Notes under the pieces: model-generated
Seen by the model: the letters and a program-made list of their open reading frames with translations, nothing else
Told to the model about the DNA's origin: nothing
Databases searched by the model: none
Shown: positions 9,214-28,554 of the stretch, piece by piece
Numbering within the stretch: position 1 is the stretch's first letter
How the letters are laid out: every line of letters begins with the position of its first letter
Translations under genes and position numbers: made by a program
Assembly (NCBI GenBank): GCA_965223665.1
Contig: OZ245011.1
Location: forward strand, 416,001-480,000
Direction of reading: 5' to 3'
From: Nitrospinaceae bacterium
GTDB taxonomy: Bacteria; Nitrospinota; Nitrospinia; Nitrospinales; Nitrospinaceae
DNA: 64,000 bases

Positions 9214-10071
9214 TTGATTTTCTTCAATAATTTGTCAATGAGTTTGGTCTTATTTTGTTTTTCAGTATTTATTTTTTCCTGTCAAAATAACTACTCATCA
9301 AATTCTTCCAAATTAAGTCCTTTTAAAATCTCACCTATGGACGGCAAAAAAATGGTTTTGATTCCAGAGGGTGAATTTATTATGGGTACGAATAAAATTG
9401 ATAAAGAAAACACTCATGTGAAAATTGGAACAGTTAAACCTTTATATTTAGATCAGCATCCAGAGAGAAAAATAAATTTAAAAGCCTTTTATATGGATCA
9501 GTATGAAGTTACCAATGCCGAATATGGTAGGTTTATTGAGGCCACTGAATTCAATGAATTGCCTGCACATTGGGAAAATGGAGTAATTCCCAATGGATTA
9601 GAAAATCACCCTGTAACCAATATTACCTGGAGAGAAGCTTTGGCATATTCTCTGTGGGCAGGAAAAATTTTACCCACTGAACAACAGTGGGAAAAAGCGG
9701 CAAGGGGATTGGATGGAAGGTTGTACCCGTGGGGAAATGATTACAAAAAGGGAATTGCTAATATTGGTTTAGATAGTATTCGCAAAACAGCCGCTGTTGG
9801 TAGTTTTCCTAAAGATATTAGTCCATATAATGTTTATGACTTGGCTGGAAATGTCATGGAATGGACTTTAAATTGGTATTTACCTTATCAGGGAAATGAC
9901 TATAAGAATTCTAAGTTCGGTAAAAAATTAAAAGTGCTTAGGGGGAACGGGTTTCAAAAAGGAGGGCATTACTTCTTGGATGCCTATCGGTATGCATTCT
10001 ATCGCACAGAAGTAGACCCTGATGAATATTTTGAGAATGTGGGTTTCCGATGTGTTCTTCCTTTAAATTAA
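9214..10071 (+). CDS. Formylglycine-generating-enzyme/SUMF1-fold domain protein (probable lipoprotein)
   Basis: MVLIPEGEFIMG, YEVTNAEY, LPTEQQWEKAARG, YDLAGNVMEW, VGFRCV. Confidence 0.92.
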   Translation: MIFFNNLSMSLVLFCFSVFIFSCQNNYSSNSSKLSPFKISPMDGKKMVLIPEGEFIMGTNKIDKENTHVKIGTVKPLYLDQHPERKINLKAFYMDQYEVTNAEYGRFIEATEFNELPAHWENGVIPNGLENHPVTNITWREALAYSLWAGKILPTEQQWEKAARGLDGRLYPWGNDYKKGIANIGLDSIRKTAAVGSFPKDISPYNVYDLAGNVMEWTLNWYLPYQGNDYKNSKFGKKLKVLRGNGFQKGGHYFLDAYRYAFYRTEVDPDEYFENVGFRCVLPLN

Positions 10072-10076: not shown

Positions 10077-10928
10077 TTATTCTAAAATGGTATTATCAAG
10101 TATGGCATCTTTAAGCAGTGCTTTTGCAATATTAGCATCTACTAAATAAGCGTCCTTAAGATTAGTTCCATTTAAATTGGTTCCATGTAGATTGGCCTCT
10201 AATAAAAATGAATTTGCAAGGTTTGCATTTTCCAGATTGGCGTAAGTGAGGTCGGCCCCTTCCAGGTTGGATTCTTCCATATCCACTCCTTTACAAAATG
10301 AATCCTTAAATTCAACTCCGATTAAATTGGCGTAGGACAACCGGACTGCTCTCAACGTGCAAGAATTAAAGTCAGAGTATTTTAGTATGGAGGAACGAAG
10401 GTCAACATCCGACAATTTGGAAAAGGAGAAATCTGAACCGCGGATATTGGCCCCATTCATGCGGGTGGAGAAAATTTCTGTAGATTTCGCAAAGCAATAC
10501 ATAAGATTTGAAAAAGAAAAGTCGCAATTTTGAATTTTTGAGGAAGTAATATTACTGTGGTCTAAACGTGCGGCGCGAAATTCACACCCTCGGAATTGAG
10601 CAGATGCAAAATTTGCATTTTCAATTTTGGCATTTTTAAAATTACAATTTACAAGGGTTGCATTCTGAAAATTGGATTCGCTTAAATTAGCACCACTAAA
10701 ATTAACATTTTTTACCCGGGCATTTTGAAACTTTACTTTGGTTAGGTTTGCTTGAGAAAAATTGAGATCAATTAAATCGGAACCATCAAATATTGCTCCA
10801 GACAGTGTTCCATAAATAAATGAAACTCCATTGAGACTAATTCCTTTTAAGTCATAAGAGCTTAGATTGGTTCCATCCTGGCATTCATTATTTAAAATGA
10901 GTGATAAAACTTCTTCGACGTTTGACAT
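10077..10928 (-). CDS. Pentapeptide-repeat protein
   Basis: Nearly the whole chain is A(D/N)LxG-type pentapeptide repeats. The start overlaps the motA stop. Confidence 0.92.
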   Translation of the reverse strand: MSNVEEVLSLILNNECQDGTNLSSYDLKGISLNGVSFIYGTLSGAIFDGSDLIDLNFSQANLTKVKFQNARVKNVNFSGANLSESNFQNATLVNCNFKNAKIENANFASAQFRGCEFRAARLDHSNITSSKIQNCDFSFSNLMYCFAKSTEIFSTRMNGANIRGSDFSFSKLSDVDLRSSILKYSDFNSCTLRAVRLSYANLIGVEFKDSFCKGVDMEESNLEGADLTYANLENANLANSFLLEANLHGTNLNGTNLKDAYLVDANIAKALLKDAILDNTILE

Positions 10929-11755
10929 TATTTTTGCTGATCTGGAGGAAGCAGAGAATTCATATTTCTTTTAATTTTTTGGGGATTGATTCTGTCATGA
11001 ATTCCCTGGATCCCTACTCTAATAACTTTAAATAATGTAGCTTCATTTTCAGTACGGTTGCTAAGCTTTGCCACAATTGGCGTGATGATTAAATTTGCGA
11101 TAATAATTCCATAAAAAGTAGTGATTAAAGCTGTAGCTAAGGAAGGTCCAATGGTTTCAGGGTTGTCAATATGCATCAGCATTTGTACCAAGCCAATAAG
11201 TGTGCCTGCCATACCAAAAACAGGAGCCTGGACGGCCATGAACCTTAATATTCGCTGACCCGCATTGTGTCGATCCAGCATTGCACTTAATTCTCGCTCC
11301 AATATTTCATGAATTTCTCTTAATCCATAACCATCCACAATCATAGCAATTCCTTTTTTGAGGAATCTATTTTCTAAGTACTGTTCTTCCGCTTCTAATT
11401 TTTTTAAACCCCCAGTCCTATATTTGTGGGAAAGGCTCATAATCTCTTCAATATAATCAGAGGGACGTAGAGTGTCTGGTTTGTAGGCATTTATTATTAC
11501 AGGGAATAATCCCAGAATTTTTTTAGAGGAAAAGGCAATGAAAGTTGTAGCCAAAGTTCCGCCTATCACAATAAGTATGGCATTTAGATTAAAAAAGGTA
11601 GAAGCATCTCCACCTCTAAAAATTGCCCAGACTAACAGGCTAATGCCCAAAACAGTACCTGCTAGGGTCATAGCATCAAATCGGCTTTCAGGGGAAGAAT
11701 CGATTTCTGTAGAAAAGTTATGAACGTTTTCAGCTTGTCTTAACGGAATTTCCAT
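10928..11755 (-). CDS. motA: MotA/PomA-family stator A subunit
   Basis: IVIGGTLATT; YRTGGLKKLE; FLKKGIAMIVDG; APVFGMAGTLIGLVQML; GPSLATALITTFYG. Confidence 0.9.
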   Translation of the reverse strand: MEIPLRQAENVHNFSTEIDSSPESRFDAMTLAGTVLGISLLVWAIFRGGDASTFFNLNAILIVIGGTLATTFIAFSSKKILGLFPVIINAYKPDTLRPSDYIEEIMSLSHKYRTGGLKKLEAEEQYLENRFLKKGIAMIVDGYGLREIHEILERELSAMLDRHNAGQRILRFMAVQAPVFGMAGTLIGLVQMLMHIDNPETIGPSLATALITTFYGIIIANLIITPIVAKLSNRTENEATLFKVIRVGIQGIHDRINPQKIKRNMNSLLPPDQQK

Positions 11756-11756
11756 T

Positions 11757-13835
11757 CTAAATACTGATTAGTTTATTAGTATCTAAAGTCCTGGCTATTA
11801 GAGATTTATGTATATAACTGGGAACCCAGGCAAGGCTCTCTAAATCTAATCGGCTTCCGGGAATAAAAACCTTAAAAAATTCCGGATGATCCTCGCTGAA
11901 CGATAAAATTTGAGGTTGGAGTTCTGATAAACAACGGGAAAGACACATTAATCCAGAAAAAGTTTTACAAAAAAGTTCTCCCCATGAAGTCAAGTATATG
12001 GCTATGACACTACGCACTCTTTCAAGTCTCTTTTGGACAAACTGGGTATATTCCTCTAAAGTTCTACATTCCTTTATATTTCCAATTGTGACTTCTTTAG
12101 GGACGGGATTTCCGAAATCAATGATTAAATATAATTGCTTTACATAAGAATCATTCAGGAGCTCTTTATTGGAAATTTCTGCGACATTGGTTAAAGATAA
12201 AAATCCGGAAAGATCTTCGAGTAGTTTTCGTAGATCATTATCCTTAATTGAATGATCTTCCGATCGAAGTAACAAAAAGGTTTCCTCAGAATAAAGTCGA
12301 TTAAAGCAAGTAAACGCTATTAGAAATTGGAGTGTGGATGCTTTTTTAATGATTTTTGCTTTCGGAATTTGCTCAATAAAATCTAATGTTTTCCCGCGTA
12401 TAAGAAACCACTCACCCGGGTCCCGGGGTTGTGTTTTATGGTGAAGAAAGGTCAATTCCTTTTCACTAGTTTTACCGTCGACCAAGGCAAATAAGTTTTC
12501 GACTTTATTAACTGTTTTCCGATAGAAACTGAATAATTTTCTGCCGAGTAAATGCGTGTCTTTCTCAGTAATTAAACTTTCTCCCGGCGCTAATTTTTGA
12601 TTGGCTTCAGAAATATTTTTATATGAATTCATTAAAATTTTATTGACACGATTTCCCAACGCTACCTTTTCCATCATTTGCCAATTAAAATAATCATTTA
12701 AATAATCAGCTTTGGCCCGAGGCCAATTCCATGAATTTATTAAGTCAATTAATATGACTTTTTTGGGTTGTGAACTTCCATATTTTAATTCGTCAACTGT
12801 AAGTTTTTTTCCTACTTTTAAATAAAATGCGGTTCGTAATACTTCCAATTCGTCACTAGTTTTGTTGTTTTTAAAGAAATTTTCTACTCTTTCAAATAAA
12901 TTAATATAAGGATCGATTTGATCAAATGGAATGCCGCTATAAACTTTACTTTTAATTTCGTGGCAAAGTAAATTACTGGTTGTAGTATTAAACATATATT
13001 CTTCTAATAAAGCCATTTTGATGAGGGTCTTGAAGGGAGCCTTAAACGATTTAATTAATGCCCAAATGGAACCTCCGAAAAATTCACCTTGGGATATATC
13101 ATCTACATTTCCAATATCTAGAAAATCATTACTATTTAAAAGAGTCTGGTGTGTGTTAACCATTTGGTAAAGCTGCTCATACTGTTTGTCATCGGTTTTT
13201 AAAGGGACGACCCACCAAAAGGGGATTTTCCCAGCAGTGATGACGGCGGTTCTATACATTTCTTCTTTTAGCAATTTCGCTTGTGCCGATCCGGTACTTT
13301 CAGAGTCGCTTTCTCCAAAAATATTTTCCTTCACCTCATTAATATCATTACTAAAAAAGTGTATTTCCAATCCATAGGTTTTCCATGCCCATTCTTCAAT
13401 TATTTTTAATTTAAGATTAAAAAGGTCTAGATTTTCAGGAGACACACTATATTTGTTTATAAAAACTGTAAAATCTAAATCAGATTTTACGTTTTGAGCA
13501 ATGGAACCGGCACTCCCCATTAATAAAATACATTCAATAAAAGGATTCAGGTTTTCATTGGGCTGTGAATGAATATCAGGGAAGAGACTTTCTTGAGCAA
13601 AACGGCATTCATAACTTAATTTGAACCCTTGAATTCCACAGGGGACTTGATCAGTTATGAATCCGGGCAGACCTTTTTGATTTATATGTAATAATCGGGG
13701 AATTAAAGTGAAAACCTTCCGGTCTTCAGGGTTGAGGTTGCTAAAGATTTCATTTATTCGGTGCTGATTGTATCGCAGGAAAATTTGCCTATTATGGAAA
13801 AGTTCATTTGAAATGCTCTGTCCATTTGTTGTCAT
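11757..13835 (-). CDS. cyaA: Class I adenylate cyclase
   Basis: Nucleotidyltransferase motif MGSAGSIAQNVKSDLD; EIHFFS; LLKEEMYRTAVITAGKIPFWW; APFKTLIKMALLEEY; DPY; RTAFYLK. All match class I cyclase signatures. Confidence 0.85.
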   Translation of the reverse strand: MTTNGQSISNELFHNRQIFLRYNQHRINEIFSNLNPEDRKVFTLIPRLLHINQKGLPGFITDQVPCGIQGFKLSYECRFAQESLFPDIHSQPNENLNPFIECILLMGSAGSIAQNVKSDLDFTVFINKYSVSPENLDLFNLKLKIIEEWAWKTYGLEIHFFSNDINEVKENIFGESDSESTGSAQAKLLKEEMYRTAVITAGKIPFWWVVPLKTDDKQYEQLYQMVNTHQTLLNSNDFLDIGNVDDISQGEFFGGSIWALIKSFKAPFKTLIKMALLEEYMFNTTTSNLLCHEIKSKVYSGIPFDQIDPYINLFERVENFFKNNKTSDELEVLRTAFYLKVGKKLTVDELKYGSSQPKKVILIDLINSWNWPRAKADYLNDYFNWQMMEKVALGNRVNKILMNSYKNISEANQKLAPGESLITEKDTHLLGRKLFSFYRKTVNKVENLFALVDGKTSEKELTFLHHKTQPRDPGEWFLIRGKTLDFIEQIPKAKIIKKASTLQFLIAFTCFNRLYSEETFLLLRSEDHSIKDNDLRKLLEDLSGFLSLTNVAEISNKELLNDSYVKQLYLIIDFGNPVPKEVTIGNIKECRTLEEYTQFVQKRLERVRSVIAIYLTSWGELFCKTFSGLMCLSRCLSELQPQILSFSEDHPEFFKVFIPGSRLDLESLAWVPSYIHKSLIARTLDTNKLISI

Positions 13836-13942
13836 AAAAGAAAATTGTGTTTAGCTATGTATTTTGGTTATTAATTAATTATAAAACTATATTTTGAATA
13901 AAATTCATTCCTGGAGCGATTATCGGATTTATTTCTTCTAAC

Positions 13943-15475
13943 TTAGGGATTTAAAAGAACTTTGAAATTTTTCCCAGGCTGGTTTAGGGAGATTTTTTTA
14001 GTAGCAATTTCATCATCTAGTACATCCTTATCCTTTAAAATTTTGATTTCTACCCTTCGATTTAGAGCTCGGTTTTTATCGTTTGAATTGGGTTTTTGCG
14101 GCCTATATTTTCCAAAGCCTTTTACAACTATTCTATTTGGAGGAAAATTTAAGGATTCAGTTATAAATCTTGCAACTCTTGAGGCACGGGCTGTAGATAA
14201 TTCCCAGTTTGAGGGGAACTTTTCATTATGAATGGGAACATCATCAGTATGACCTTCTACATATATTTGTTTTACACCTTCTTTTAAATAATCATTCAAG
14301 GCTTGCTTTAAAAAGTCTCTTGCTTTGGGAAGCAGATCCGAATCTCCAGGAGAAAATAAATTATTACTTTGTAATCGAACAGAAAGAGTTTTAACATCGC
14401 TACGGATCAGGCTTTCGGGATCTACATTATCTTGAACTAATTCCTTAACCCTATTGAGCATAGTCACTTCTTGTTGGCTTAAATGTATATTGTCGTCATC
14501 CCAACGAAATTCTTTTTCTTGAAATGACGAGAATGCTTCTGCAAATCTATTTTGATCCACTTTAGAAATTGTAAATAGTAAAACAAAAATTACTAAAATT
14601 AATGTGATCATGTCACTATAAGTAACCAAAAAACTTTCAAGCCCTGAGGAAAACTCCGTTGAACCTTTAGCCCTACTGTCAATTTGAATATTGTTTTCAA
14701 AACGATCGATGTCTTTCTTTTCCTGTTCTTCAATGGCTTTTCTTTCTATATCTGAGATATATTCTTGCTGCTGTTCTAATTTTTCATTTAATTCATTGTT
14801 TTCATCAATTAGTTCACTAAGTTGATTTTTTAAATCATAACCGTATTCTGAAGATAAGAGACCTTTTTCCATGGATTGGGCTGATTCTTTGTAAAATTTC
14901 TCATAGTGTTCAATTAATTTTTCTTTTTCTTTTAATCGCTCTTGTAAATCCTCATTGGTTAAGGTAGGGCGTTTTTTTAGCTCGGTTTTTAATCTAATTA
15001 TTTGTTGATTTAAATCATCAATTGAGTTTATTTTTTCACGAAATCGGCGTAATTCTCTAAGTAGGTAAGATTTTTCCCGGTTACTTTTGTCCAAGGCTTT
15101 TTGTTCCTTAACAAGTCTTTTCCTTATGGCCTTTTCTTTTATGGTTAGCTCATCCAGTTTTTGTTTCCATTCATTTTTTAGATCCGGTACATTGACTCCA
15201 AAATCAGGCTTTCGAGTTTCTTTGTTTTCTTGGGAAGAACTTTGTTTAACTGTTATATGCCGTGATATCCTAGCAACCGAAGCCATTTGCTTGGCTTCTT
15301 GTATTTCCTTATCCTTCTGCTTTAACAGCAGATGCAGTTCGCGAATTTTATCTTTGTTGAGCTGAGTAACCTGAGAAACTTTGCGGTGCAATCTTGAGGC
15401 TTCTCTTTCCTGTTTTTTAAGCTCACTGCTTTTTATTTTTAACTGTTCTTTTACTGTTTGGAGAGAATGATTCAT
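13943..15475 (-). CDS. motB: MotB-family stator B subunit with long N-terminal coiled coil
   Basis: TM motif FLVTYSDMITLILVIFVLLF with the conserved Asp at ~aa 288. OmpA-like domain VEGHTDDVPI..FPSNWELSTARA..NRALNRRVEI. Residues ~1-260 are K/E/Q/L heptad-rich. Confidence 0.85.
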   Translation of the reverse strand: MNHSLQTVKEQLKIKSSELKKQEREASRLHRKVSQVTQLNKDKIRELHLLLKQKDKEIQEAKQMASVARISRHITVKQSSSQENKETRKPDFGVNVPDLKNEWKQKLDELTIKEKAIRKRLVKEQKALDKSNREKSYLLRELRRFREKINSIDDLNQQIIRLKTELKKRPTLTNEDLQERLKEKEKLIEHYEKFYKESAQSMEKGLLSSEYGYDLKNQLSELIDENNELNEKLEQQQEYISDIERKAIEEQEKKDIDRFENNIQIDSRAKGSTEFSSGLESFLVTYSDMITLILVIFVLLFTISKVDQNRFAEAFSSFQEKEFRWDDDNIHLSQQEVTMLNRVKELVQDNVDPESLIRSDVKTLSVRLQSNNLFSPGDSDLLPKARDFLKQALNDYLKEGVKQIYVEGHTDDVPIHNEKFPSNWELSTARASRVARFITESLNFPPNRIVVKGFGKYRPQKPNSNDKNRALNRRVEIKILKDKDVLDDEIATKKISLNQPGKNFKVLLNP

Positions 15476-15680
15476 AGTATTGTCTATTTCTAGTAGTATC
15501 TTATCGGAATTTAAGCGAAAATAAGTAATAACAAAGTTGGTCTCTTTGCTGAGCCCTTTGAATAGTTTTCCACGCTTTATTTAATAAACCACAGGCTTTC
15601 CTTACCCAAATCTCCCTGGATCTATTAGGGAATTGGTGAATTTTCAATCATTTTGCACACGATTCATTTTCAACTTCCTA

Positions 15681-17147: not shown

Positions 17148-17837
17148 ATGATCAAAAGTAATCTACGTTTTATCTATTTACATGGTTTTGCATCGAGTCC
17201 TCAATCCCAAAAGGCGTCTATATTTAAGGCTAAACTAAAGGAAATCGGAGTAAATTTAATTATTCCAGATCTGGAAGCAGGAGACTTTAAATACATAACC
17301 ATTTCCAAACAAATGAAGGTCATAGAAAAAACAATAAATCAGGTGAAAGGTGGACCCGTTGTTCTGGTAGGAAGCAGTATGGGAGGTTATTTGGCAATAT
17401 TGGCTTCTCAAATTCATTCAAACGTAAAAGGACTTTATTTAATGTGCCCGGGTTTAAACTTTTTGAAACGATGGCGACAAAAGCTGTTGGATCAGAATCC
17501 TAAAATAAATGATTTTCCGCACTTGATAAGAGTTTTTCATTACCGTTACAATAAAGAGGTAGACTTGGATAAAGGATTATTTGAGGATGCTCTGCAATGG
17601 GAACAATTATTAATAGATAAAAAGCTTCCCATTCGAATTGTTCATGGGATAAATGATGAAACCGTGCCCATAGAAGTTTCCAGAAAATTTTCTAACAAAC
17701 GACCTTGGGTTAGTTTAAAAGAGTTAGAATCGGATCATTCGCTTCTTTCTCATATTTCCTGGATAATTGAAGATTGCATTCTATACTTTTGCCGGAATAA
17801 CTTTCTCAAAAATGGACCTACAAAGGAAAAATACTAA
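17148..17837 (+). CDS. YqiA/YcfP-family alpha/beta hydrolase (esterase)
   Basis: YLHGFASSPQSQKA; nucleophile motif GSSMGGY; HGINDETVP; SDH. Confidence 0.88.
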   Translation: MIKSNLRFIYLHGFASSPQSQKASIFKAKLKEIGVNLIIPDLEAGDFKYITISKQMKVIEKTINQVKGGPVVLVGSSMGGYLAILASQIHSNVKGLYLMCPGLNFLKRWRQKLLDQNPKINDFPHLIRVFHYRYNKEVDLDKGLFEDALQWEQLLIDKKLPIRIVHGINDETVPIEVSRKFSNKRPWVSLKELESDHSLLSHISWIIEDCILYFCRNNFLKNGPTKEKY

Positions 17838-18381
17838 AATCGAAAAATATCAAGGCTTAAAAAAAGCTGTCTGTTTATCAAAAATGGGTCATTTGGGGCA
17901 ATTAAGAAAAGGTCCCTTGAAGGAGCCTTTTTATAATCATCCCAGAAGGGTGTGTAAATCTTATTTAAAGTTTAAACATAAAACTCATGCAGGAGTATTA
18001 GCTGCTCTATGTCATGATTTGGTGGAAGATACTTTTGTCACTACTAATGAGATTGAAAATAACTTTGGAGTTGATGTCGCTATTTTAGTTAACGACTTAA
18101 CAAAACCAAAAAATGTTTCTTCTGAAGATTACGCGAGAAGCATCTACCAATGGCAATGGGAATCTAAAAAGCTTAAATTATGTGATATTGAGGACAATAT
18201 TTTGAGTTCTAAATTAATTAATACACATGATAGAAAAAGAATGCTTAATAAATGGAATAATTACTTAGAAAAACTTTTCCATTCAGCTAAAGGATCATTG
18301 GATGAATTGATGGAGTTTTATAAGAAATGGAATTTTGTTTACAATTTACTCCAAAATAGTTTGGCAGAATGTGCTGCTTAA
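17812..18381 (+). CDS. Stand-alone RelA/SpoT-type HD hydrolase (small alarmone hydrolase/MESH1-like)
   Basis: GQLRK, PFYNHP, AALCHDLVEDT, FGVDVAILVNDLTK, KLCDIEDN. Confidence 0.8.
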   Translation: MDLQRKNTKIEKYQGLKKAVCLSKMGHLGQLRKGPLKEPFYNHPRRVCKSYLKFKHKTHAGVLAALCHDLVEDTFVTTNEIENNFGVDVAILVNDLTKPKNVSSEDYARSIYQWQWESKKLKLCDIEDNILSSKLINTHDRKRMLNKWNNYLEKLFHSAKGSLDELMEFYKKWNFVYNLLQNSLAECAA

Positions 18382-18410
18382 AAATAATTATAATGAAGGT
18401 AAAAAAATAG

Positions 18411-19103
18411 ATGATTGGAAAATTTACAATTTTAATTGTCGATGATGATGAAGAAATTTTAAAACTTCTTCAGCATAAATTAGGGAAAGAAGAGAAAGAT
18501 AAGTTTAAGGTCATTGTTGCGACGGATGGTGAGTTGGCTTTGGATATAGTAACAAATAAAAAACCTGATTTGGTGATATTAGATGTAAATATGCCACTAG
18601 TAAATGGACTAGAAGTATGTCGGACAATAAGAGCTGATCCTCAAACCAAGGAAATTCCAATAATCTTTTTATCTGCGAGAAAAGATGAGGTAGATAGGAT
18701 TCTAGGCCTGGAATTTGGGGCGGACGACTATATAACAAAACCCTTCAACCCTAAAGAGCTATTGCTTAGAATTAATAATGTTTTGAAAAGAGTATATGGA
18801 GATGGAAATAAAACTGAAAACTTAACTCATGGTTTATTAAGCATTGATTTTGCGAAACATGAAGTAATAGTAAATAATCAATCCATAAAGCTGACTTTAA
18901 CAGAATTCAAATTACTTTCCTGTCTTTTGGAAAATATTGGTCAGGTTAAATCAAGAGATTATTTATTAGAACAAATTTGGGAACATGGAGACGGTGTGTT
19001 TTCACGTACTATTGACACGCATATCCAAAGACTCAGAACAAAATTAAATGAAGCAGGAGATTATATTGAGACAGTTAGGGGCGTCGGATATCGGTTTCAG
19101 TAA
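18411..19103 (+). CDS. OmpR/PhoB-family response regulator
   Basis: Receiver domain (DDD, LDVNMP, GADDYITKPF) plus winged helix (LTLTEFKLL, SRTIDTHIQRLRTKL, IETVRGVGYRF). Confidence 0.95.
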   Translation: MIGKFTILIVDDDEEILKLLQHKLGKEEKDKFKVIVATDGELALDIVTNKKPDLVILDVNMPLVNGLEVCRTIRADPQTKEIPIIFLSARKDEVDRILGLEFGADDYITKPFNPKELLLRINNVLKRVYGDGNKTENLTHGLLSIDFAKHEVIVNNQSIKLTLTEFKLLSCLLENIGQVKSRDYLLEQIWEHGDGVFSRTIDTHIQRLRTKLNEAGDYIETVRGVGYRFQ

Positions 19104-19190
19104 ATTTTATTTTTCTGCTCCTAATAAACACTACCTTTTTAATATAGGTTTTCCTTCCTGGGGATTGATCTGGTTATCCCGTACCGAATT

Positions 19191-19230
19191 TTGTTACAAA
19201 ATTGTAGCTTCCTTGTAATTCGATTTTAAC
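19191..19230 (+). promoter_or_regulatory. 11-bp-periodic direct repeats (OmpR/PhoB-type operator candidate)
   Basis: TTGTTAC (19191), TTGTAGC (19202), TTGTAAT (19213), TTTTAAC (19224). Confidence 0.5.
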
Positions 19231-19284
19231 CTTTGTTATCTACCCTGAACATGGCATTGGTTAATTAATTTTTATGAGGGAGTC

Positions 19285-19707
19285 ATGTCTAATAACAATT
19301 TAATTACTTCAGAAGTACCAATAACTGTAGGTGGACGCTTACGATATTGGAGAAAGTTTTCAGCGCTTCGGTTAGTCGATTTAGCGGCACTGATTAGCGT
19401 ATCCCAAGGGTCTTTATCGGATTTAGAAAACGATAAGTCTCTTCCATCAGCCACAACTTTAACAGGTTTATGTAAAAAAACCGATATGAATATTTGTTGG
19501 CTCTTGACCGGGGAGGGTGATATTACCCGTGAACCTGATCGAGGAGATGCCGAAATTTCTGCATTTCAAGATTTTATGAGATTAATGCAAGATCGAGAAT
19601 TCAGAAAAACTGCAATTAAGTTAATGAATATTTTTGAAAAAGGCTCATTAACGCAAAAAGCCCAAATAAAAGGGTTTTTGGCAGGTGTCGAAGCTGAAAG
19701 CATTTAA
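19285..19707 (+). CDS. XRE-family HTH transcriptional regulator
   Basis: VGGRLRYWR..LAALISVSQGSLSDLENDKSLPS..WLLTGEG; SD GAGGGAG. Confidence 0.9.
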   Translation: MSNNNLITSEVPITVGGRLRYWRKFSALRLVDLAALISVSQGSLSDLENDKSLPSATTLTGLCKKTDMNICWLLTGEGDITREPDRGDAEISAFQDFMRLMQDREFRKTAIKLMNIFEKGSLTQKAQIKGFLAGVEAESI

Positions 19708-20493: not shown

Positions 20494-22281
20494 TTATTTC
20501 TCCAGGCTGCTAATAACTTTTTTAGATTCTTCAAATAAATCTTGCATCTTGAGATTGGATCCATTTGCATATTGAAGTAGCTCAAGTTTATCGAGTAGCT
20601 CTCTTGTCTGGATAATCTGTTCTTGAGGATAACCTCTTTGCTGAAGTTGTTCAGTAACTTCTAAAGATGTAAATGCAGTACCAATAAGATTTAATTTGTT
20701 TCCAATATATTCCCGGACAATAAGAGAAAGTCTTTTACCCATATCTTTTAAATTTGTGCTTTGGGAAATTTTGTCTAATTGGGTTTTGGCTTGTTTGAAT
20801 GCCAATTTGTTTCTAGAAAAAGCGATGTCATGTTTTAATTGATACTGATGCTTTGAGTAAAAAACAAATCCCCAAAATAGGATAGGAGGAAGGAATATTC
20901 CTAAGCCAAAAAATATATATTCATTAGTGGAAAACCGTTGATTGGAGAATAGGGTTAAATTGGTATGAATTGGTAAAATATCTTGTCCTAAGGTATTTAC
21001 AGAAGACCGACTTTTTCCCAAATTATTTTTGGAAGATTCTACCACTTTCATTGATCCGGACTGTGATGAAGGAGTTACATTTAAAAAAATAGGCTTTGTT
21101 TGAATCGTTTGGTATTTGGCTTTTGAAACATCAAAATATGATAGAGAAATTGGTGAAATAGTTAAATCTCCAGAAACCATAGGGACCAAGGCAAATTTAT
21201 ATATTTTGGTTCCGGATATTTTTTTGTCTATTACAGTCTGCATAAATTCTGGTTGATCTTTATATATTTTAAAATCGTTTCCCAAATCAGGGATAGCTAT
21301 GTTAATAGCTTGTGCATTTCCTTTTCCTGAAGCAGTCAGTGTTAATGTAGTGGTTTCTCCTACTTCTAATTCCTTTCTACTAATATTTGCGGAAATATTA
21401 AACTGCCCAACCAGGTTAGAAAAGTTTTTGGGACGATTCTTCTTGGGTAAAGGTTTAACTTTAAGACTAATTGGATTAGTAAGGAGATTTTTATGGTCAG
21501 TCTTTACAACATTCGTAAAAAAGGGATCGGAAAAAAATGAATCTAAATTTCCAAAACCTCTTTTACGTTTATTTCTATAAACAATATCAACACCCAACGT
21601 AGCGGATGGAATTTCTATGGAACCGGATTTTAGAGGAAATAATACGGTTTGAATTTCGTAAACCTGATAACGGAGTCCATTAATTACTCTGGTGTATTTT
21701 TTTGGCTCTCCATAATCTTCTTCTCGAAATGTATCTAATTTAATATCTAAAGACAAATTTCGGATCTCGACTTTATAATACAATTTAACAGTGAAAATTA
21801 TTTGCTCATTAATAAATGGCTGATTATTTGAAATGTATGCTTCTGCAAATATATCGGATTGAGTTCCAGGTTGATAAACTTGTTTTTTAACGTTAATGGT
21901 AATCGGAGCGGTTAAGTAGGGATTGCCGTCAATTTCCATTGTTATTGGAGCAATGGTAAAAGTTCCAACAGATTTTGGTATTAATTGATAGTTAAATGTT
22001 ACCGAGGAAGCTTTTTTACCATTTACAATTTGGATGGAAGAAGAGGATCCTTGCGATTTGACTTGAAAGTTTGGAAGTGAGGGAAGAGTTGGGGGAAGAG
22101 AATCCCCCTTGCCCTGAATTGTTACAGAAAAATTTAGAGTATCTTCAAGGGTGATTTCTGTGTTATCAGTGCTTGCTGAAATTTGAATTTCTTCTGCAAG
22201 GGCACTTTCTGCAAGTAAAAAATAAAATGATAAAAGTATTAAGAAAAAAAAATTAGAAAAATATGAAATTTTATTATTCAT
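20494..22281 (-). CDS. batD: BatD-family protein
   Basis: Signal peptide, tandem Ig-like BatD domains (SSSIQIVNG, VGQFNISA), C-terminal TM; position in the Bat cluster. Confidence 0.88.
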   Translation of the reverse strand: MNNKISYFSNFFFLILLSFYFLLAESALAEEIQISASTDNTEITLEDTLNFSVTIQGKGDSLPPTLPSLPNFQVKSQGSSSSIQIVNGKKASSVTFNYQLIPKSVGTFTIAPITMEIDGNPYLTAPITINVKKQVYQPGTQSDIFAEAYISNNQPFINEQIIFTVKLYYKVEIRNLSLDIKLDTFREEDYGEPKKYTRVINGLRYQVYEIQTVLFPLKSGSIEIPSATLGVDIVYRNKRKRGFGNLDSFFSDPFFTNVVKTDHKNLLTNPISLKVKPLPKKNRPKNFSNLVGQFNISANISRKELEVGETTTLTLTASGKGNAQAINIAIPDLGNDFKIYKDQPEFMQTVIDKKISGTKIYKFALVPMVSGDLTISPISLSYFDVSKAKYQTIQTKPIFLNVTPSSQSGSMKVVESSKNNLGKSRSSVNTLGQDILPIHTNLTLFSNQRFSTNEYIFFGLGIFLPPILFWGFVFYSKHQYQLKHDIAFSRNKLAFKQAKTQLDKISQSTNLKDMGKRLSLIVREYIGNKLNLIGTAFTSLEVTEQLQQRGYPQEQIIQTRELLDKLELLQYANGSNLKMQDLFEESKKVISSLEK

Positions 22282-22293
22282 TAATAATTTAAT

Positions 22294-23163
22294 TTACCAA
22301 TCCTTGCCATTATTAACAAAAACATCTTTCATTTCACCTTGCATTTGCCGTCGGTTGAATTTTTTAATATCTTCGTTTAAAGAATCCAGCCATTGCTCCG
22401 CTTCTTCTTTTGACATCGAAGTGATTTGCTCAATAGCCTCTTCTGTGGTTTGTTGGTCTAATTGATTAGATTGGCTTGAAGAGTTTTTATTTTCTGCTTT
22501 TTTAGGAGATTTAGGAACTTCCCCATCCAAATGGTTTTTATCAGAGTTTTGCTGAGCTTGATTTTCTTCATCAGATTCATCTGAACTTGGGGCATTAGAA
22601 TCGCTTTGATTTTCGTTATTAGCCTTAGAGTCAGCAGGATTATTGGCATTTTCGGTAGGGTTTTGTTTTTGAGATTTATCTCTCGGTCCTATATTCCCTG
22701 TTCTTTGAGCTTTTTCCAATTGCTTTCTTGCAAACTCCAAATTGAACTTACTATCTTTATCGTTCGAGTCCAACTCTAAAGCTTTTTTATAGGATTGGAT
22801 AGCTTTGTCCAGATACCCCAACCTGTAATAAGCGTTTCCCTGGTTGTAATAAGATTTTTGTTTTAATTTAGGATCATTGGAGTTTTTCAAAGCCTTATCA
22901 TATTCTTCCACGGATTGTTCGTAGCGACCAACACGAAAATTACTGTTTGCTAAATTATAAGCTAAATTCGGGTTCTCCGGATCTTCTGCTTGAGCTTCAA
23001 TGAATTTGTCGGTTGCTTCTTTATATTTTTCTTGATTATAAAATGTAATGCCCTCGTTGAGAGCCGAAGAGGATGAGTTCGCAGAGGTTTGATTCAGGAA
23101 AAATGTAAAAGAAGTAATGAAAACTATAAAAACCGTGGTAACTACGCGTGAAAACATAACCAT
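22294..23163 (-). CDS. batC: BatC-like TPR protein
   Basis: Three TPRs, a Q/N/S/E-rich linker, MSKEEAEQWL, and C-terminal KDW. Confidence 0.85.
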   Translation of the reverse strand: MVMFSRVVTTVFIVFITSFTFFLNQTSANSSSSALNEGITFYNQEKYKEATDKFIEAQAEDPENPNLAYNLANSNFRVGRYEQSVEEYDKALKNSNDPKLKQKSYYNQGNAYYRLGYLDKAIQSYKKALELDSNDKDSKFNLEFARKQLEKAQRTGNIGPRDKSQKQNPTENANNPADSKANNENQSDSNAPSSDESDEENQAQQNSDKNHLDGEVPKSPKKAENKNSSSQSNQLDQQTTEEAIEQITSMSKEEAEQWLDSLNEDIKKFNRRQMQGEMKDVFVNNGKDW

Positions 23164-23185
23164 TACTATTTAAATTACTCATCTC

Positions 23186-23220
23186 AAAAACTAATAGTTG
23201 ACCCAATGGCCAACTATTAG
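23186..23220 (-). terminator. Rho-independent terminator downstream of yccA
   Basis: Minus strand CTAATAGTTGGCC-ATTG-GGTCAACTATTAG-TTTTT. Confidence 0.75.
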
Positions 23221-23246
23221 CGGTAACCAATAAGATTTAATTTATC

Positions 23247-23951
23247 CTATCTTCGATCACCCATGATTCTGAGAAGCATTAGAAACAAGTTTATGAAATC
23301 CAAATAAAGGGTCAAAGCCCCGCTAATTGCTTCTTTTGTATCTTCATCGGTGCCTTCGTTACCTAGAATATTCATTTCTTTTATTTTTTGGGTGTCGTAA
23401 GCGGTAAGCCCTACAAAGATCAAAACTCCGGCATAAGTTACTACCCAATATACGGTTTCATTATTTAGAAACATGTTTACGATGGAAGCAATGATGATTC
23501 CAATAAGCCCCATAAATAAAAAACTTCCCCAAGAGGTAAGGTCTTTCTTTGTGGTGTAACCGTAAAAACTCATTGCGGCAAAAGTGCCTGCAGTGACAAG
23601 AAAAGTAGAAGTAATAGAAGATGCTGTATAAACAATAAAGATGGATGAGAAGGTTAATCCAGTAAGGCCTGCATATAATAGGAAAACACCTGTTGCTTGA
23701 CTGGCAGACATTTTTTTTACGGCCATTGCTAAATATACAACAAGACCTAATTGTGCAATTACTAGGACAATGGGTACAATTGGATTGCCAAAAATTAACT
23801 TTAATAGAGTTGGACTATTTGCGACCATATAAGCAGTTCCCCCGGTCATGCCCAAACCTACAGTCATCCAGTTATAGACGCGCACCATAAAACGTTGTTG
23901 TTCTTCTGCGGCTGCTTGGGGACTTGCATACACTTGTTGTCGGTATTCCAT
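23247..23951 (-). CDS. Bax inhibitor-1/YccA-family membrane protein
   Basis: FMVRVYNWM, YGYTTKKDLT, LTAYDTQKIK, GALTLYLDFINLFL; 7 TMs; SD AAGGAG. Confidence 0.93.
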   Translation of the reverse strand: MEYRQQVYASPQAAAEEQQRFMVRVYNWMTVGLGMTGGTAYMVANSPTLLKLIFGNPIVPIVLVIAQLGLVVYLAMAVKKMSASQATGVFLLYAGLTGLTFSSIFIVYTASSITSTFLVTAGTFAAMSFYGYTTKKDLTSWGSFLFMGLIGIIIASIVNMFLNNETVYWVVTYAGVLIFVGLTAYDTQKIKEMNILGNEGTDEDTKEAISGALTLYLDFINLFLMLLRIMGDRR

Positions 23952-24011
23952 TATTTAAAACTCCTTGATCATTATTTAAGTAGAGGTTTACAAATTCAAC
24001 GGGTCACTAGT

Positions 24012-24042
24012 AGCATATAAAATTTACCCTATGCTTTGTCAA
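24012..24042 (-). promoter_or_regulatory. Putative sigma70 promoter for the yccA-like gene
   Basis: Minus strand TTGACA (24042-24037); -10 is either TATATG (17-nt spacer) or TATGCT (19-nt spacer). Confidence 0.45.
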
Positions 24043-24102
24043 GCCCTATGAGGGTAAAAGCCCATTATACAGGAATTTCGTAAGGCTTTGTAAAACAATA
24101 TC

Positions 24103-25101
24103 TTATTTTGTTGTTCGCTCCCGCAAAGCTTGTTCACTCATTAATAGAACAAGGGCAAAACCCAATATCCATTGAAACCGATGGGTCCAACGTTTTCTAT
24201 GAGAGGATTTTAAGGCTTTTTTTTCAATTTTTTGTTTAATGTCTTCTAAATATATTTTTTCCAAATCCATGTTTCCCATCACTGATCGGACATAAGTTCC
24301 ACCCGTTTTTAATGCAATTTGTTGTAAGGTGGATTCGTCAATTTTTGACAGAATTACTTCCCCCTTGGAATCTTTAATGAATCCACCTCCTGAATCCAAA
24401 TCTGGAATGGGTGCGCCTGTAGGTTGCCCGATGCCAATAACAAATACGCGCACCTTTTCATTTTTGGCCAATTCGGCAGATTTTATAGCTGCTCCTTCAT
24501 GATCTTCTCCATCGGTGATAAGAATTATGGATCGGGATTTTTTCTCGATTTGGCTAAACCCTTTGATTGCAGTTTGAATTGCGTGACCAATTGCGGTCCC
24601 TTGAAGGGGAATTATATCTGTGTCTAATGAATTTAAAAATATTTCTGCTGCCTGGTAGTCTAATGTAAGAGGGCATTGTAAGAAACTTGTTCCTGCAAAA
24701 GCGACAATTCCAACTCGATCTCCATCCAGCATCCTTAATAGATCAATAACTTTATATTTAGCTCGTTCTAAACGATTGGGCTTTATATCACTGGCAAGCA
24801 TGCTTTTTGAAACATCTAAAACAATCATGATGTCTACCCCTTCTTGAGTTAAGTCCTCCCACTTAAATCCAAGTTGAGGTTGTGAAAGTGCAAAAATCAA
24901 TAAGGCAAAGGCAATAACCCAAAGAGATCCCTTGCTATGCCTTTTTTTCCAAAGTAAAGGATTTGTCAATCTAGAAATTAGTGGAGATTGAATAAATTTT
25001 TGAGCCAATCGTTTTCTTTTTTTTTCAGCCCAAATTAAAAAAAAGATAATAGGGATCAAAAGAAATAAAAAAATTAGATATTGGGGATTTCCAAATTGCA
25101 T
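24103..25101 (-). CDS. batB: BatB VWA-domain protein
   Basis: MIDAS LDVSKSM; DIKPNRLERAK; CPLTLDY; ITDGEDHE. Confidence 0.9.
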   Translation of the reverse strand: MQFGNPQYLIFLFLLIPIIFFLIWAEKKRKRLAQKFIQSPLISRLTNPLLWKKRHSKGSLWVIAFALLIFALSQPQLGFKWEDLTQEGVDIMIVLDVSKSMLASDIKPNRLERAKYKVIDLLRMLDGDRVGIVAFAGTSFLQCPLTLDYQAAEIFLNSLDTDIIPLQGTAIGHAIQTAIKGFSQIEKKSRSIILITDGEDHEGAAIKSAELAKNEKVRVFVIGIGQPTGAPIPDLDSGGGFIKDSKGEVILSKIDESTLQQIALKTGGTYVRSVMGNMDLEKIYLEDIKQKIEKKALKSSHRKRWTHRFQWILGFALVLLMSEQALRERTTK

Positions 25102-25102
25102 A

Positions 25103-26101
25103 TTAGGGAATCCTCCGCATTTGGGTTTGGCTTAGTAAGGCTTCTAAAAGCAAAAGAAATATTCCGGGAATTAAAAACAATGGAAACAATTCATTGAATT
25201 CACTATGGTCAATCCATTTTACTTCTGATTTTTCCAAACTATCAATTTGCTCATAAATCTTTTTTAAAGAGTCTGAATCTGTGGCTCTGAAATATTTCCC
25301 ACCAGTTAAATTGGATATTTTTTTCAAGGTTACTTCGTCTAACGCAACTTCTTGATAGACAACCTGTGTGCCAAAAGGAGTGTCTACCATAAAAGGTGCT
25401 TTACCTTGGGTTCCTACACCTACTGTATATATTTTAATCCCTAGCGCATTTGCTATTTTTGCGGCTTGGAAGGGTAGAATTTTCCCTGCATTATTTTGTC
25501 CGTCTGTTAAAAGTATGATTAACTTGGATTTTGATTTTAAATCCTTCAATCGTTTGGTAGAAATTCCAATGGCAGAACCAATAGCAGTGGAATCGCCTGC
25601 TATCCCAATTTTTAGTTTATCCAGGAAAGAGAAAAGGATGTCATGGTCTAAAGTGAGAGGACATTGAGTGAATGCCTCATTTCCAAAAACAACCATTCCC
25701 ACTCGGTCGAATTCACGTCCTTCAATAAAGTCGTTTACTACCTGTTTCACTATAGTAAGTCGATCCACCTGTTTATCATTTTTAATAAAGTCCATGGCTC
25801 GCATACTACCCGATGTGTCGATGGCAAGCATAATATCCACACCCGCAGAGAGGATTTCTGTGCTTTTTCTACCTTCCTGGGGTCGAGCTATTGAAATGAT
25901 AATGAGAATTACTGCGATGCATCGCAAAATAAAGGGGATATGACTTATATAGAAAAGTTTTTTAGGATTTAGTTTTTTTAATCCAGCCAATCCTGAAAAA
26001 TTAAAGGTAGCAGGTTTAGTTTTCCAGTTGTTAATTATCATCCATGGAATAATAACAAGTAATGAAAAAAACAATGGATCTTCAAATCGAAAATAACTCA
26101 T
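25103..26101 (-). CDS. batA: BatA VWA-domain protein
   Basis: MIDAS IDTSGSMRAMDF; CPLTLDH; TAIGSAIG; LLTDGQNNAG; GGKYFRATD. Confidence 0.92.
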   Translation of the reverse strand: MSYFRFEDPLFFSLLVIIPWMIINNWKTKPATFNFSGLAGLKKLNPKKLFYISHIPFILRCIAVILIIISIARPQEGRKSTEILSAGVDIMLAIDTSGSMRAMDFIKNDKQVDRLTIVKQVVNDFIEGREFDRVGMVVFGNEAFTQCPLTLDHDILFSFLDKLKIGIAGDSTAIGSAIGISTKRLKDLKSKSKLIILLTDGQNNAGKILPFQAAKIANALGIKIYTVGVGTQGKAPFMVDTPFGTQVVYQEVALDEVTLKKISNLTGGKYFRATDSDSLKKIYEQIDSLEKSEVKWIDHSEFNELFPLFLIPGIFLLLLEALLSQTQMRRIP

Positions 26102-26105
26102 TCAA

Positions 26106-27107
26106 TTATTTGTTCGTTAAAGCAGTTTCTTGTTTATGTTGATTCTGGTGAGTGGTCATTAAAACAAAGTCATTTATAGACTCTATATCATCCAAAGATG
26201 TTTGGGTGTTTATGGGTGCTTTAGCAAACTTTACCTGGTCCGTTTTTTGTAAAAGTTGAATTGCATTTTCCTGAATTTCAAAAGGAATATTTTTTTTCTC
26301 GAAATAGAACTTAATTTCTTCAGTCGTCCAATCTAGTGCCGGTATGTTAAATATTGCTCCCAAATAACGTCTAAATATTTCAGATAGTTCAAAGTAGTGA
26401 TCCTGAAAAAAACCCTGTTGAATTAAATTTTTTTGTAATAAACCCTGGAGTTCAATTTTAATTAATTCTTGGGCTGATGGGGTTTGATTATCCAAGGGAG
26501 CATTGTTTTCGTGCTTCGGTTGACTGGCCCATTTAAAAAACACAATTAGAATGGCCAGTCCAGCAAGTATAGACCCTATAACTAATAACCATTTTTCCCA
26601 AGCCGGTCTTGCCCCAATAATAGGTTTAATGTCCTTTATGTCTGTTGGTTCACCGTCTTCATAAAGAACTGATCTAACCACAATAGAATTTTTTGGGGCA
26701 AAAATTTGCCCTGGGATTAGAGTGTTAGGATTTTTAGGATTAGGGATCGTGAAATTGACCTGGATTTTTGGAAATGTGAAATTTCCCACTTTATCTGCAC
26801 GTAACTGGAACCAAAAGTTTTCTATTATTTGTCCTTCTTTTTTTTGAGAGGGAAGGCTTCCTTGATCTACAAATTCAAAGTCAGAAAAAACCATAGAAGG
26901 ATTGGGAGGAGCAATTTTAATTTCCGGATCATGTTGAATCGATATTGAGTATGTAAATTTATCTCCTACAGTCACTTCTTTTTTATCTATGTTTGAGGTT
27001 GTTGATATAGGCGATTTCGAATTTTTTGCATCCCCAAATACTGGGGATTTTTGTTGGATAATTAAACTGAAGCTGGTTAGAAATAAAATAATTAATATTT
27101 TTTTCAT
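26106..27107 (-). CDS. Bat-cluster membrane protein (Ig-like N-terminal domain, TM, helical C-terminus)
   Basis: Signal peptide from MKKILII; DIKDIKP before the TM; ELSEIFRRYL..TTEE..DQVKFAK, typical of the gene between DUF58 and batA. Confidence 0.75.
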   Translation of the reverse strand: MKKILIILFLTSFSLIIQQKSPVFGDAKNSKSPISTTSNIDKKEVTVGDKFTYSISIQHDPEIKIAPPNPSMVFSDFEFVDQGSLPSQKKEGQIIENFWFQLRADKVGNFTFPKIQVNFTIPNPKNPNTLIPGQIFAPKNSIVVRSVLYEDGEPTDIKDIKPIIGARPAWEKWLLVIGSILAGLAILIVFFKWASQPKHENNAPLDNQTPSAQELIKIELQGLLQKNLIQQGFFQDHYFELSEIFRRYLGAIFNIPALDWTTEEIKFYFEKKNIPFEIQENAIQLLQKTDQVKFAKAPINTQTSLDDIESINDFVLMTTHQNQHKQETALTNK

Positions 27108-27112
27108 TATTT

Positions 27113-27583
27113 TTATTTTAAATACTGATTGATTTGGCTCTGACATTTTTGAATATTGTTTTGGACTTCAGAATTCCAATCGGCTTCTTGATAATATGCT
27201 TCTGAATAAAAAAACCAAACAAGCGCTTCAGAACAATCCTTTTTCTTAACAAAAAGATTTCCAAGAGAATAGGAAATTTTTGATTTAGTTTTTGGGCTAA
27301 CCTCCGGTTGAATAAATATTTTTTTGTATTCTTGAATTGCTTTATCTATCAATCCCACTTCCTCAAGTTTTTTGGCGACTTGGATTGTTGGTGAACTGGT
27401 TGAAATATTTTCTGGAGAGGGGAAAGCAAATCGTTTTATGAGTAATGCCGTAAAAGTTCCAAAAGCAATAATCGTGACTAGGGTCAGAAAAATAACAAAA
27501 TATTTTACCCCTGAGCTTACCCCTGCTGAGGGTAAAAGTGTGGATTCACTTGGTTCATACCTTCCTGTATTTTTTTCATTCAT
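27113..27583 (-). CDS. Membrane-anchored TPR-like hypothetical protein
   Basis: Single TM followed by TPR-like helices (AIQEYKK, YSLGNLF). Confidence 0.65.
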   Translation of the reverse strand: MNEKNTGRYEPSESTLLPSAGVSSGVKYFVIFLTLVTIIAFGTFTALLIKRFAFPSPENISTSSPTIQVAKKLEEVGLIDKAIQEYKKIFIQPEVSPKTKSKISYSLGNLFVKKKDCSEALVWFFYSEAYYQEADWNSEVQNNIQKCQSQINQYLK

Positions 27584-27600
27584 TCTTCTTTACTTTTTAT

Positions 27601-28554
27601 TTAATGTTTTTTCTCTCGGAACTTGAAATATTGAATAATCGGCTTAATTAGAGGTTTATCTGTTTGGATTTCAATTAAGTCAATCCCAAAGGAATGGAAC
27701 CTGCTTTTCAAATGGTTCCTCTCTTTTTCAGCCCATTGCGAATAACTTTTAACAAAATCTTTATCACCCGTATCAATTACTAGAGTTTCTCCCGTTTCTG
27801 AATCCTCCAAATGGACCCACCCGACATTTGGTAAAATAGATTCTCTGGGGTCTTTAATGGAAATGGCAATTAGATCATGTTTTTGTCTAGCTAGCTTTAG
27901 GTTCTGGTCGTATCCTTCTGCTTGAAAATCTGAAATTAAAAAAGCCACTGATTTTCTTTTTTGTACCTTCAGTAAAAATTCCAATGGAAGGTTTATGTCA
28001 GTTTTTTTACCTTCCGGAGTAAAGTTCAGGATGGTCTTTATAACATTCCAAATATGGGCGCGGCCCTTTTGAGGGAGAATATAATGTTCGATTTGATCTG
28101 AAAAAATGATGAGTCCTACCTTGTCGTTATTTTTTATTGCTGCAAAAGCAAGGATAGAAGCAATTTCCACTGAAACTTCATTTTTTAATTTTTCTGCGGA
28201 TCCAAAATGACCTGAAGAACTTACATCAACTAGAAGCATTACGGTTAATTCACGTTCTTCACGAAATTCCTTAATATAAGGGTGTCCCATTCTTGCCGTA
28301 ACATTCCAGTCAATAAGACGAATGTCGTCACCTGGTTGATATTCCCGGACTTCACGAAATTCCATCCCTGAACCTTTAAATGCCGAAACATATTCACCTG
28401 CCATCATATGATTTACCAAATGATTAGTTTTTATCTGGATATCTCTAATTTTTTTTATCATTTCAGGTGAAATTGATTTTTCAAAAATATCTTGAGGTGG
28501 CAGGGGGGTAGCACCGAAGGGTGAAGTGATTTTTTCTAAAAGACGGGTAAACAT
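27601..28554 (-). CDS. DUF58-domain protein
   Basis: GMEFREVREYQPGDDIRLIDWNVTAR; LLVDVSSS; ISDF. Confidence 0.93.
   Translation of the reverse strand: MFTRLLEKITSPFGATPLPPQDIFEKSISPEMIKKIRDIQIKTNHLVNHMMAGEYVSAFKGSGMEFREVREYQPGDDIRLIDWNVTARMGHPYIKEFREERELTVMLLVDVSSSGHFGSAEKLKNEVSVEIASILAFAAIKNNDKVGLIIFSDQIEHYILPQKGRAHIWNVIKTILNFTPEGKKTDINLPLEFLLKVQKRKSVAFLISDFQAEGYDQNLKLARQKHDLIAISIKDPRESILPNVGWVHLEDSETGETLVIDTGDKDFVKSYSQWAEKERNHLKSRFHSFGIDLIEIQTDKPLIKPIIQYFKFREKKH

Follow-up and report, generated by a model that had tools for sequence, protein, structure and literature searches.

A conserved gene cluster of the Nitrospinales sets a short class I adenylate cyclase and a pentapeptide-repeat protein beside an accessory stator pair

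In a 64,000-nt stretch of DNA from a Nitrospinaceae bacterium (contig OZ245011.1, positions 416,001 to 480,000; hereafter the window), a cluster of four minus-strand open reading frames (ORFs) was found in the ORF map, in the order motB, cyaA, motA and the gene of a pentapeptide-repeat protein (PRP). The first gene, motB-long (13943-15475, minus strand), encodes a protein of 510 amino acids (aa) with the Pfam domains MotB_plug (279-320, E 2.7e-13) and OmpA (373-473, E 9.9e-18). An AT-rich spacer of 107 nt, read from the sequence (13836-13942, minus strand), separates it from cyaA (11757-13835, minus strand), whose 692-aa product is a short class I adenylate cyclase with the Pfam domains Adenyl_cycl_N (E 1e-48) and Adenylate_cycl (E 4.7e-69). 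This gene is followed by motA (10928-11755, minus strand), encoding a PomA/MotP-like stator A subunit of 275 aa (MotA_ExbB, E 2.3e-27), and by the PRP gene (10077-10928, minus strand), whose 283-aa product consists of pentapeptide repeats throughout (Pentapeptide, E 3.2e-48).

Direct reading of the junctions showed that the TAG stop of cyaA is separated by one base from the ATG of motA, and that the TAA of motA overlaps the ATG of the PRP gene as TAATG. Both junctions, the shared direction of the four genes and their order are as described in the initial annotation of this DNA. Its statement that no flagellar or chemotaxis gene lies nearby also holds for the 48 window ORFs scanned with Pfam, about ten smaller ORFs at 35-64 kb being left out of that scan. 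The 157 nt (15476-15632, no strand assigned) that separate motB from the divergently oriented MFS transporter gene, delimited from the ORF map and the sequence, are presumed to be the promoter region of the cluster. A further, internal promoter could lie within the motB-cyaA spacer, which measures about 110-430 nt among relatives. A consensus scan found no terminator-like site on the minus strand of the 107-nt spacer, the promoter and terminator scan being uninformative overall. The window has a GC content of about 35% and contains neither a transfer RNA gene nor a match to any Rfam family.

The window belongs to a low-GC member of the nitrite-oxidizing order Nitrospinales. Homologs of its cyclase were found in Nitrospina gracilis (62% identity), N. 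watsonii (61%) and Candidatus Nitrohelix vancouverensis, and a relative with 95% identity is filed as a Nitrospinaceae metagenome-assembled genome. The cyclase was found in 35 of 41 relatives; among the phylum's genomes with a completeness of at least 80%, 77 of 92 have it. Searched for in relatives, the four-gene arrangement proved to be conserved: the order motB-cyaA-motA-PRP recurs in 16 of 20 loci (cyaA-PRP only in three, a contig end in one), and five further Nitrospinales loci comprise two full four-gene clusters, two with cyaA-PRP only and one of variant order. A MotA ortholog was found in 67 of the 102 genomes of the order. For 58 genomes the coordinates of both genes are listed, and in 54 of these motA immediately follows cyaA; the four exceptions comprise two breaks between contigs, a variant order and a different paralog. 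Since the arrangement recurs over the whole order at 50-95% protein identity, it is far beyond chance. Outside the order, tblastn detected no MotA, MotB or PRP neighbor at 15 CyaA loci of the same class, where the cyclases are 30-37% identical. The genome-contig scan yielded a single locus and the metagenome scan retained only PRPs of at least 51% identity, and other phyla are hardly sampled by these scans.

The surroundings of the cluster are conserved as well. On one side lie an Lcl_C protein, a 99-aa ORF and an FGE-sulfatase-like gene, and on the other the genes of an MFS transporter, a UPF0227 protein, an HD protein, an OmpR-type regulator and a 140-aa ORF. Protein identity tracks relatedness, being 95% within the genus, 60-66% within the family and 52-57% within the order. 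Because gene order and flanks are conserved across the order and identity falls with relatedness, the cluster is part of the vertically inherited core genome and not a defence island. In the window, the FGE-sulfatase-like gene occupies 9214-10071, and it abuts the PRP gene across the order; the UPF0227 hydrolase, a small HD_4-domain protein, the OmpR-type response regulator and the 140-aa ORF, which adjoin the cluster order-wide, occupy 17148-19707.

Within this arrangement, CyaA and the PRP are the invariant core and the stator pair is accessory. As a correction to the initial annotation, the stator cannot count as a constant element of the system: it is lost or decaying in several lineages in which CyaA and the PRP stay. 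The genera g2, g5 and g20 keep cyaA-PRP between the same flanks, together with FliG; the lineage of locus L060 has a MotB remnant only; and genomes G002 and G078, which are without the cyclase-linked stator, still have two other MotB genes. Searching with the PRP alignment found 80 metagenome contigs, some of which come from genomes already counted, so that the two sets are not independent. In 72 contigs, 300 bp or more of sequence precedes the PRP gene, whose immediate upstream neighbor is motA in 49 of them, cyaA in 17 and a truncated motA in six. Where at least 5 kb is available upstream (26 contigs), the order is motB-cyaA-motA-PRP in 16, cyaA-PRP in five, cyaA-truncated motA-PRP in three and motB-motA-cyaA-PRP in two.

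A rearranged form, motB-motB'-motA-cyaA-PRP, was found in part of genus g6, with the stator still beside the cyclase. At L059:8995-13253 (G056:C44), two tandem long MotB proteins (530 and 500 aa) are followed by motA, cyaA and the PRP gene, and in the second MotB of this variant Pfam found the plug and no OmpA domain. In the metagenome contigs L085, L088, L089, L095, L102 and L111, motB is missing upstream and the motA that sits between cyaA and the PRP gene is truncated or broken; these contigs show the decay of the stator under way in a pelagic lineage.

The stator of the cluster is one of several in its genome, which encodes FliG and has three MotB_plug genes and thus three stator pairs, none of which was observed beside flagellar genes. 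The description of the cluster's stator as an orphan therefore calls for a qualification, since two further MotA/MotB pairs accompany FliG in the genome. A separate canonical pair does exist, as the initial annotation had thought worth checking, but it was not seen beside flagellar genes. This canonical pair, in the order motA-motB (260 and 268 aa), lies behind a response-regulator/HD-GYP gene. At L054:5833-7188 the gene immediately before the canonical motAB encodes a response regulator that has an HD-GYP-type (HD_5) domain and would be a possible cyclic di-GMP (c-di-GMP) link to the main stator. Two genes upstream of motAB, a single 801-aa protein is encoded in which a NACHT NTPase domain is joined to an FGE-sulfatase-like domain (L054:3140-5545; G000:C1:259139-261544). 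The third pair, also in the order motA-motB, has a MotB of 499 aa with the same architecture as the cluster MotB. It is located outside the window at G000:C1:620468-622769 (L055:7468-9769, minus strand), with a MotA of 261 aa; two ORFs (131 and 212 aa) without a Pfam family follow it, and the pair is kept in the flagellate relatives G002 and G078. Between the cluster MotA and its counterpart in this third pair the identity is 41%, and with the canonical MotA it is 36%.

The cluster MotB has no Pfam family over residues ~1-275. In the AlphaFold2 (AF2) model, which has a predicted local distance difference test score (pLDDT) of 70 and a predicted template modelling score (pTM) of 0.31, this part forms helices at 2-78, 99-168, 174-203 and 209-264, followed by a transmembrane helix at 277-305. 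Residue D288 aligns with D32 of Escherichia coli MotB in 20 of 20 orthologs, confirming it as the ion-binding aspartate that had been proposed, and the OmpA-like domain is kept, in agreement with the suggested capacity for peptidoglycan anchoring. In the N-terminal part, the motifs K9 E10 L12, L138 and K184 I188 E192 are invariant in 20 sequences that include the third-pair paralog. A word-based search with the long N-terminus returned seven proteins, all with MotB_plug and OmpA, of which the one named by organism is from Nitrospinae; the Atlas clusters of this region are mostly from Nitrospinota, and neither the word-based nor the Atlas search found a relative outside the phylum.

For MotA, the equivalents of four E. 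coli residues are kept among 19 orthologs: R90 in 19, E98 in 18, P173 in 19 and P222 in 19. We take R90 and E98 to be the rotor-facing charged residues and P173 and P222 to be the channel prolines of E. coli MotA. Because these four are kept, the stator looks flagellar-type and not repurposed. Its NCBIfam scores stay below the equivalog cut-offs, with 194.1 bits for PomA (cut-off 341) and 194 bits for MotP (cut-off 394) in the case of MotA, and with MotS (139.8 bits against 264) and MotD as the nearest models in the case of MotB.

CyaA is a shortened member of its family. It covers positions 1-407 of the 601 of the Pfam Adenylate_cycl profile, the last third being missing, and it does not have the full-length class I architecture with a C-terminal regulatory region; its best NCBIfam match, the 638-position class I model NF006981, reaches 446.6 bits against a cut-off of 802. 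The nucleotidyltransferase motif G-S...S-D-L-D (equivalents of G102, S103, S113, D114 and D116) is kept in 26 of 26 orthologs, where the E. coli CyaA residue numbers and roles, including that of W118 discussed below, are as we assume them to be. The AF2 model of CyaA has a pLDDT of 81 and a pTM of 0.73. A PDB sequence search gave no match for CyaA, and Foldseek gave none at E <= 0.001, its rows being weak ones to pol-beta-fold nucleotidyltransferases only. No CyaA relative of 1212-3460 aa was found at E <= 1e-10 in a search for Rosetta-stone fusions, which is weak evidence.

The PRP is constant in length among its orthologs (283-285 aa) and acidic, with an isoelectric point of 4.9 (ortholog median 4.85), and its alignment of 24 orthologs (A2) has a mean column identity of 66%. 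It scores under the cut-off of every named NCBIfam subfamily (Qnr 73 bits against 240; HetL 106.5 against 260), and by these scores it appears to be a generic pentapeptide-repeat protein and not a Qnr. Modelled together, CyaA and the PRP gave an interface score (ipSAE) of 0.66 (0.60, 0.67 and 0.66 in the individual runs), and the best of three controls gave 0.01. That mark is reached by 58 of 80 solved complexes and by 2 of 110 mismatched pairs, a calibration that holds roughly here, own 24-row alignments having been used. The runs share at least 91% of their contacts, and the partner has a pLDDT of at least 90. On the CyaA side, the predicted interface comprises the first helix (residues 13-32) plus residues 74-79 and 232; on the PRP side, it is a stripe of residues about 20 apart, from 109 to 269, on one face of the beta-helix.

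The CyaA residues at this interface are largely kept in the 26 PRP-linked cyclases of the Nitrospinales (R16 in 25, E76 in 24, Q17 and F13 in 22, and R21, F25 and L232 in 21), and the same positions vary or are gapped in 15 PRP-less cyclases from other Nitrospinota orders and in E. coli CyaA. CyaA and the PRP are predicted to bind each other, and the PRP is most likely a regulatory or adaptor subunit of the cyclase that would replace the absent C-terminal regulatory region.

In the order, the cyclase tends to occur together with FliG. Among 51 Nitrospinales genomes at least 90% complete, CyaA is present in 41 of the 43 with FliG and in one of the eight without. The non-flagellate genome G024 yielded no MotB_plug protein at all, and the MotA ortholog is missing from the non-flagellate genomes that the order-wide survey lists.

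From these data we favor, tentatively and with a probability of about 45%, the reading that the cluster encodes an accessory flagellar stator linked to a cyclase-PRP module for cyclic AMP (cAMP), with physical coupling between the two. One module would be the cyclase-PRP complex, in which the first helix of CyaA would lie along one face of the PRP beta-helix; the other would be a paralogous flagellar-type stator made of MotA and of MotB with its long cytoplasmic coiled-coil N-terminus. The complex would be made together with the stator and would dock on it or be controlled by it via the coiled coil of MotB or the cytoplasmic domain of MotA. The state of the stator (engaged or idle, its ion flow or its load) may then tune cAMP synthesis as a signal of motility or surface state. 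In lineages without this stator, the cyclase-PRP complex is perhaps served by the paralogous long-MotB stator, which has the N-terminal motifs in common. The contact between stator and cyclase, cAMP as the product and the direction of signalling are what we infer. The motor-coupled signalling proposed in the initial annotation thus keeps its ground in that gene set and order are conserved and a link is still the best reading, but not in that the cyclase persists without this stator.

Several observations weigh against the reading of a linked stator and cyclase. MotA orthologs were found in 0 of 11 genomes of genus g2, 0 of 1 of g5 and 0 of 2 of g20, genera that retain FliG and two further stator pairs. 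In the truncated motA copies nearly all nucleotide differences change the residue (for example, 14 nucleotides giving 14 residues) and one copy has stop codons, so these copies are drifting and decaying. Given that CyaA-PRP stays in lineages whose motA and motB are decaying or gone, the cyclase does not need this stator. The cluster MotB is 28% identical to the third-pair MotB from end to end, N-terminus included, and the long N-terminus, being found in another stator pair of the genome as well, is no cyclase-specific adaptor. The 107-nt spacer could itself contain a promoter. On the side of the cyclase, all 26 orthologs have L, V or I at the position aligned with W118 of E. coli CyaA, and for the PRP residues that are invariant no significant enrichment was seen at the predicted interface (5 of 19 against 34 of 283, p = 0.06). 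Finally, six of the eight FliG-less genomes belong to one genus and are therefore not independent, and since the FliG-less genomes G024 and G039 are also without class III cyclases and have few matches to cyclic nucleotide monophosphate (cNMP)-binding families (four and none, against ten here), the joint loss of cyclase and flagella may reflect general genome streamlining.

Much of this would also suit an operon of convenience, in which the stator drives the flagellum, the cyclase serves general cAMP regulation and the two share expression with neither contact nor signal. We regard such mere co-regulation as the main alternative and a serious possibility. It agrees with the repeated loss of the stator alongside retained CyaA-PRP, with the presence of the residues of a working flagellar stator, with the AT-rich gap before cyaA as a place for a separate promoter, and with the other cyclases and about ten cNMP-binding matches of the genome, which point to cAMP signalling of a general kind. 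It hardly explains, however, why a cyclase gene should split motB from motA in an order kept across families at ~50-55% CyaA identity, why cyaA, motA and the PRP gene are so closely packed for translation, and why the stator is still beside cyaA after rearrangement. Another view, that the pair is a non-flagellar 5:2 ion-driven motor acting as a free sensor of the envelope or the ion-motive force, with the coiled coil holding the cyclase and PRP as its output, appears improbable to us. A 275-residue MotB coiled coil is unusual for flagellar stators and was found in our searches only in Nitrospinota, no flagellar genes lie nearby and the NCBIfam stator equivalog cut-offs are unreached; yet the rotor-facing R90 and E98 equivalents are kept (19/19 and 18/19), G024 has no MotB_plug protein, and the listed non-flagellates have no MotA ortholog.

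The initial annotation had also suggested a Zorya-like anti-phage module, and a defence system of this or another cyclic-nucleotide type is the explanation to which we give the least credence. MotB does match the PADLOC ZorB models, the best at 78 bits, and nucleotide cyclases occur in defence systems; but the ZorB matches span only the generic MotB part, and MotA, CyaA and the PRP gave no match to ZorA, ZorC, ZorD or any other PADLOC model. Moreover, MotA (275 aa) has no long tail, the cluster is usually single-copy (of the 35 relatives' genomes that have a match, 30 have one only), identity follows relatedness and the flanks are conserved housekeeping genes. With generic ZorB matches to MotB alone and a neighborhood whose conservation follows phylogeny, as expected of core-genome synteny, we rejected this candidate.

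A more specific form of the stator-cyclase link that we favor can be drawn, although we think it rather unlikely. In it, CyaA and the PRP would be held between the stationary, peptidoglycan-anchored MotB coiled coil and the rotating MotA ring, so that ion-driven rotation of MotA around MotB, or its stalling, would turn the cyclase on or off, and the PRP, resembling a DNA mimic, would affect the pol-beta-fold cyclase in a way akin to the activation of cGAS/OAS-type enzymes by nucleic acid. If true, this mechanosensor would be the first operon-encoded transducer from motor to second messenger, and the PRP would be the first protein regulator known for the catalytic domain of a class I cyclase.

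The stator of the cluster has in common with PomAB, MotPS and MotAB the MotA_ExbB domain, the channel prolines, R90/E98, the MotB aspartate, the plug and the OmpA-like anchor; its best NCBIfam matches are PomA, MotP, MotS and MotD, and it went undetected in the non-flagellate relatives examined. It differs from the usual stators in that its genes are split by a cyclase gene and run B...A instead of A-B, the order of the other two pairs of the genome, in the ~275-residue cytoplasmic coiled-coil N-terminus of its MotB, and in scores under all equivalog cut-offs; its role at the flagellum is a putative one. In Pseudomonas aeruginosa, MotC is reported to bind and stimulate the diguanylate cyclase SadC (10.1101/483339). 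Signalling of this sort was established in Pseudomonas by genetic and protein-interaction experiments. By analogy, the Nitrospinales cluster may work like MotCD-SadC, with motor state feeding nucleotide signalling. The Pseudomonas system uses c-di-GMP and a membrane GGDEF cyclase, whereas the Nitrospinales cluster has a soluble class I adenylate cyclase and a PRP in the stator operon. The genes of MotCD and SadC are not known to be linked.

Like E. coli CyaA, the cyclase carries the two Pfam domains of class I enzymes together with the G-S...D-x-D motif of nucleotidyltransferases, but it has 692 aa instead of 848, and the last third of the Adenylate_cycl profile and the W118 equivalent are not kept. 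E. coli CyaA is controlled via its C-terminal domain by EIIA-Glc; in the Nitrospinales cyclase, by contrast, the PRP is predicted to sit on the N-terminal helix. Like Qnr, MfpA, HetL and PipB2, the PRP has pentapeptide repeats throughout and is acidic like the DNA-mimic members. It differs from them in its predicted partner, an adenylate cyclase, a pairing that our literature searches did not find. Zorya resembles the cluster in joining a MotAB-like pair to non-motor proteins, whereas the cluster has no ZorA tail and no ZorC-G, is located in the core genome and is inherited vertically.

Two other groups of genes in the window deserve mention. Positions 52524-57705 (minus strand) hold two tandem T2SSE/MshE-type ATPases, both with MshEN and the larger (955 aa) with N-terminal GAF domains, which suggests nucleotide-regulated pilus or secretion ATPases. 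Positions 20494-29549 (minus strand) encode a MoxR AAA ATPase, a DUF58 protein, two VWA/BatA-like proteins, a TPR protein and BatD, which make up a Bat-type (aerotolerance-like) operon.

In agreement with the initial annotation, which knew of no described system with this gene set, our literature searches found no published description of the cluster. In the genome paper on N. gracilis, the strings "flagell", "cyclase" and "chemotaxis" occur nowhere in the main text, although its supplements may list these genes. Nitrospina-type bacteria are described as the main marine nitrite oxidizers (PMC3578206), and the cluster is present in the cultured species N. gracilis and N. watsonii. The predicted CyaA-PRP complex offers a concrete role for a pentapeptide-repeat protein, as a candidate regulator of a class I cyclase, a family for which our PDB sequence search found no solved structure. 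The long cytoplasmic MotB coiled coil is a phylum-specific stator form, occurring in two paralogous pairs, and it should be visible in cryo-electron tomography of the Nitrospina motor. With a cAMP cyclase genetically wired to a stator paralog, signalling from motor to second messenger becomes directly testable in these organisms, and the cluster hints at an undescribed link between the motor and cell signalling.

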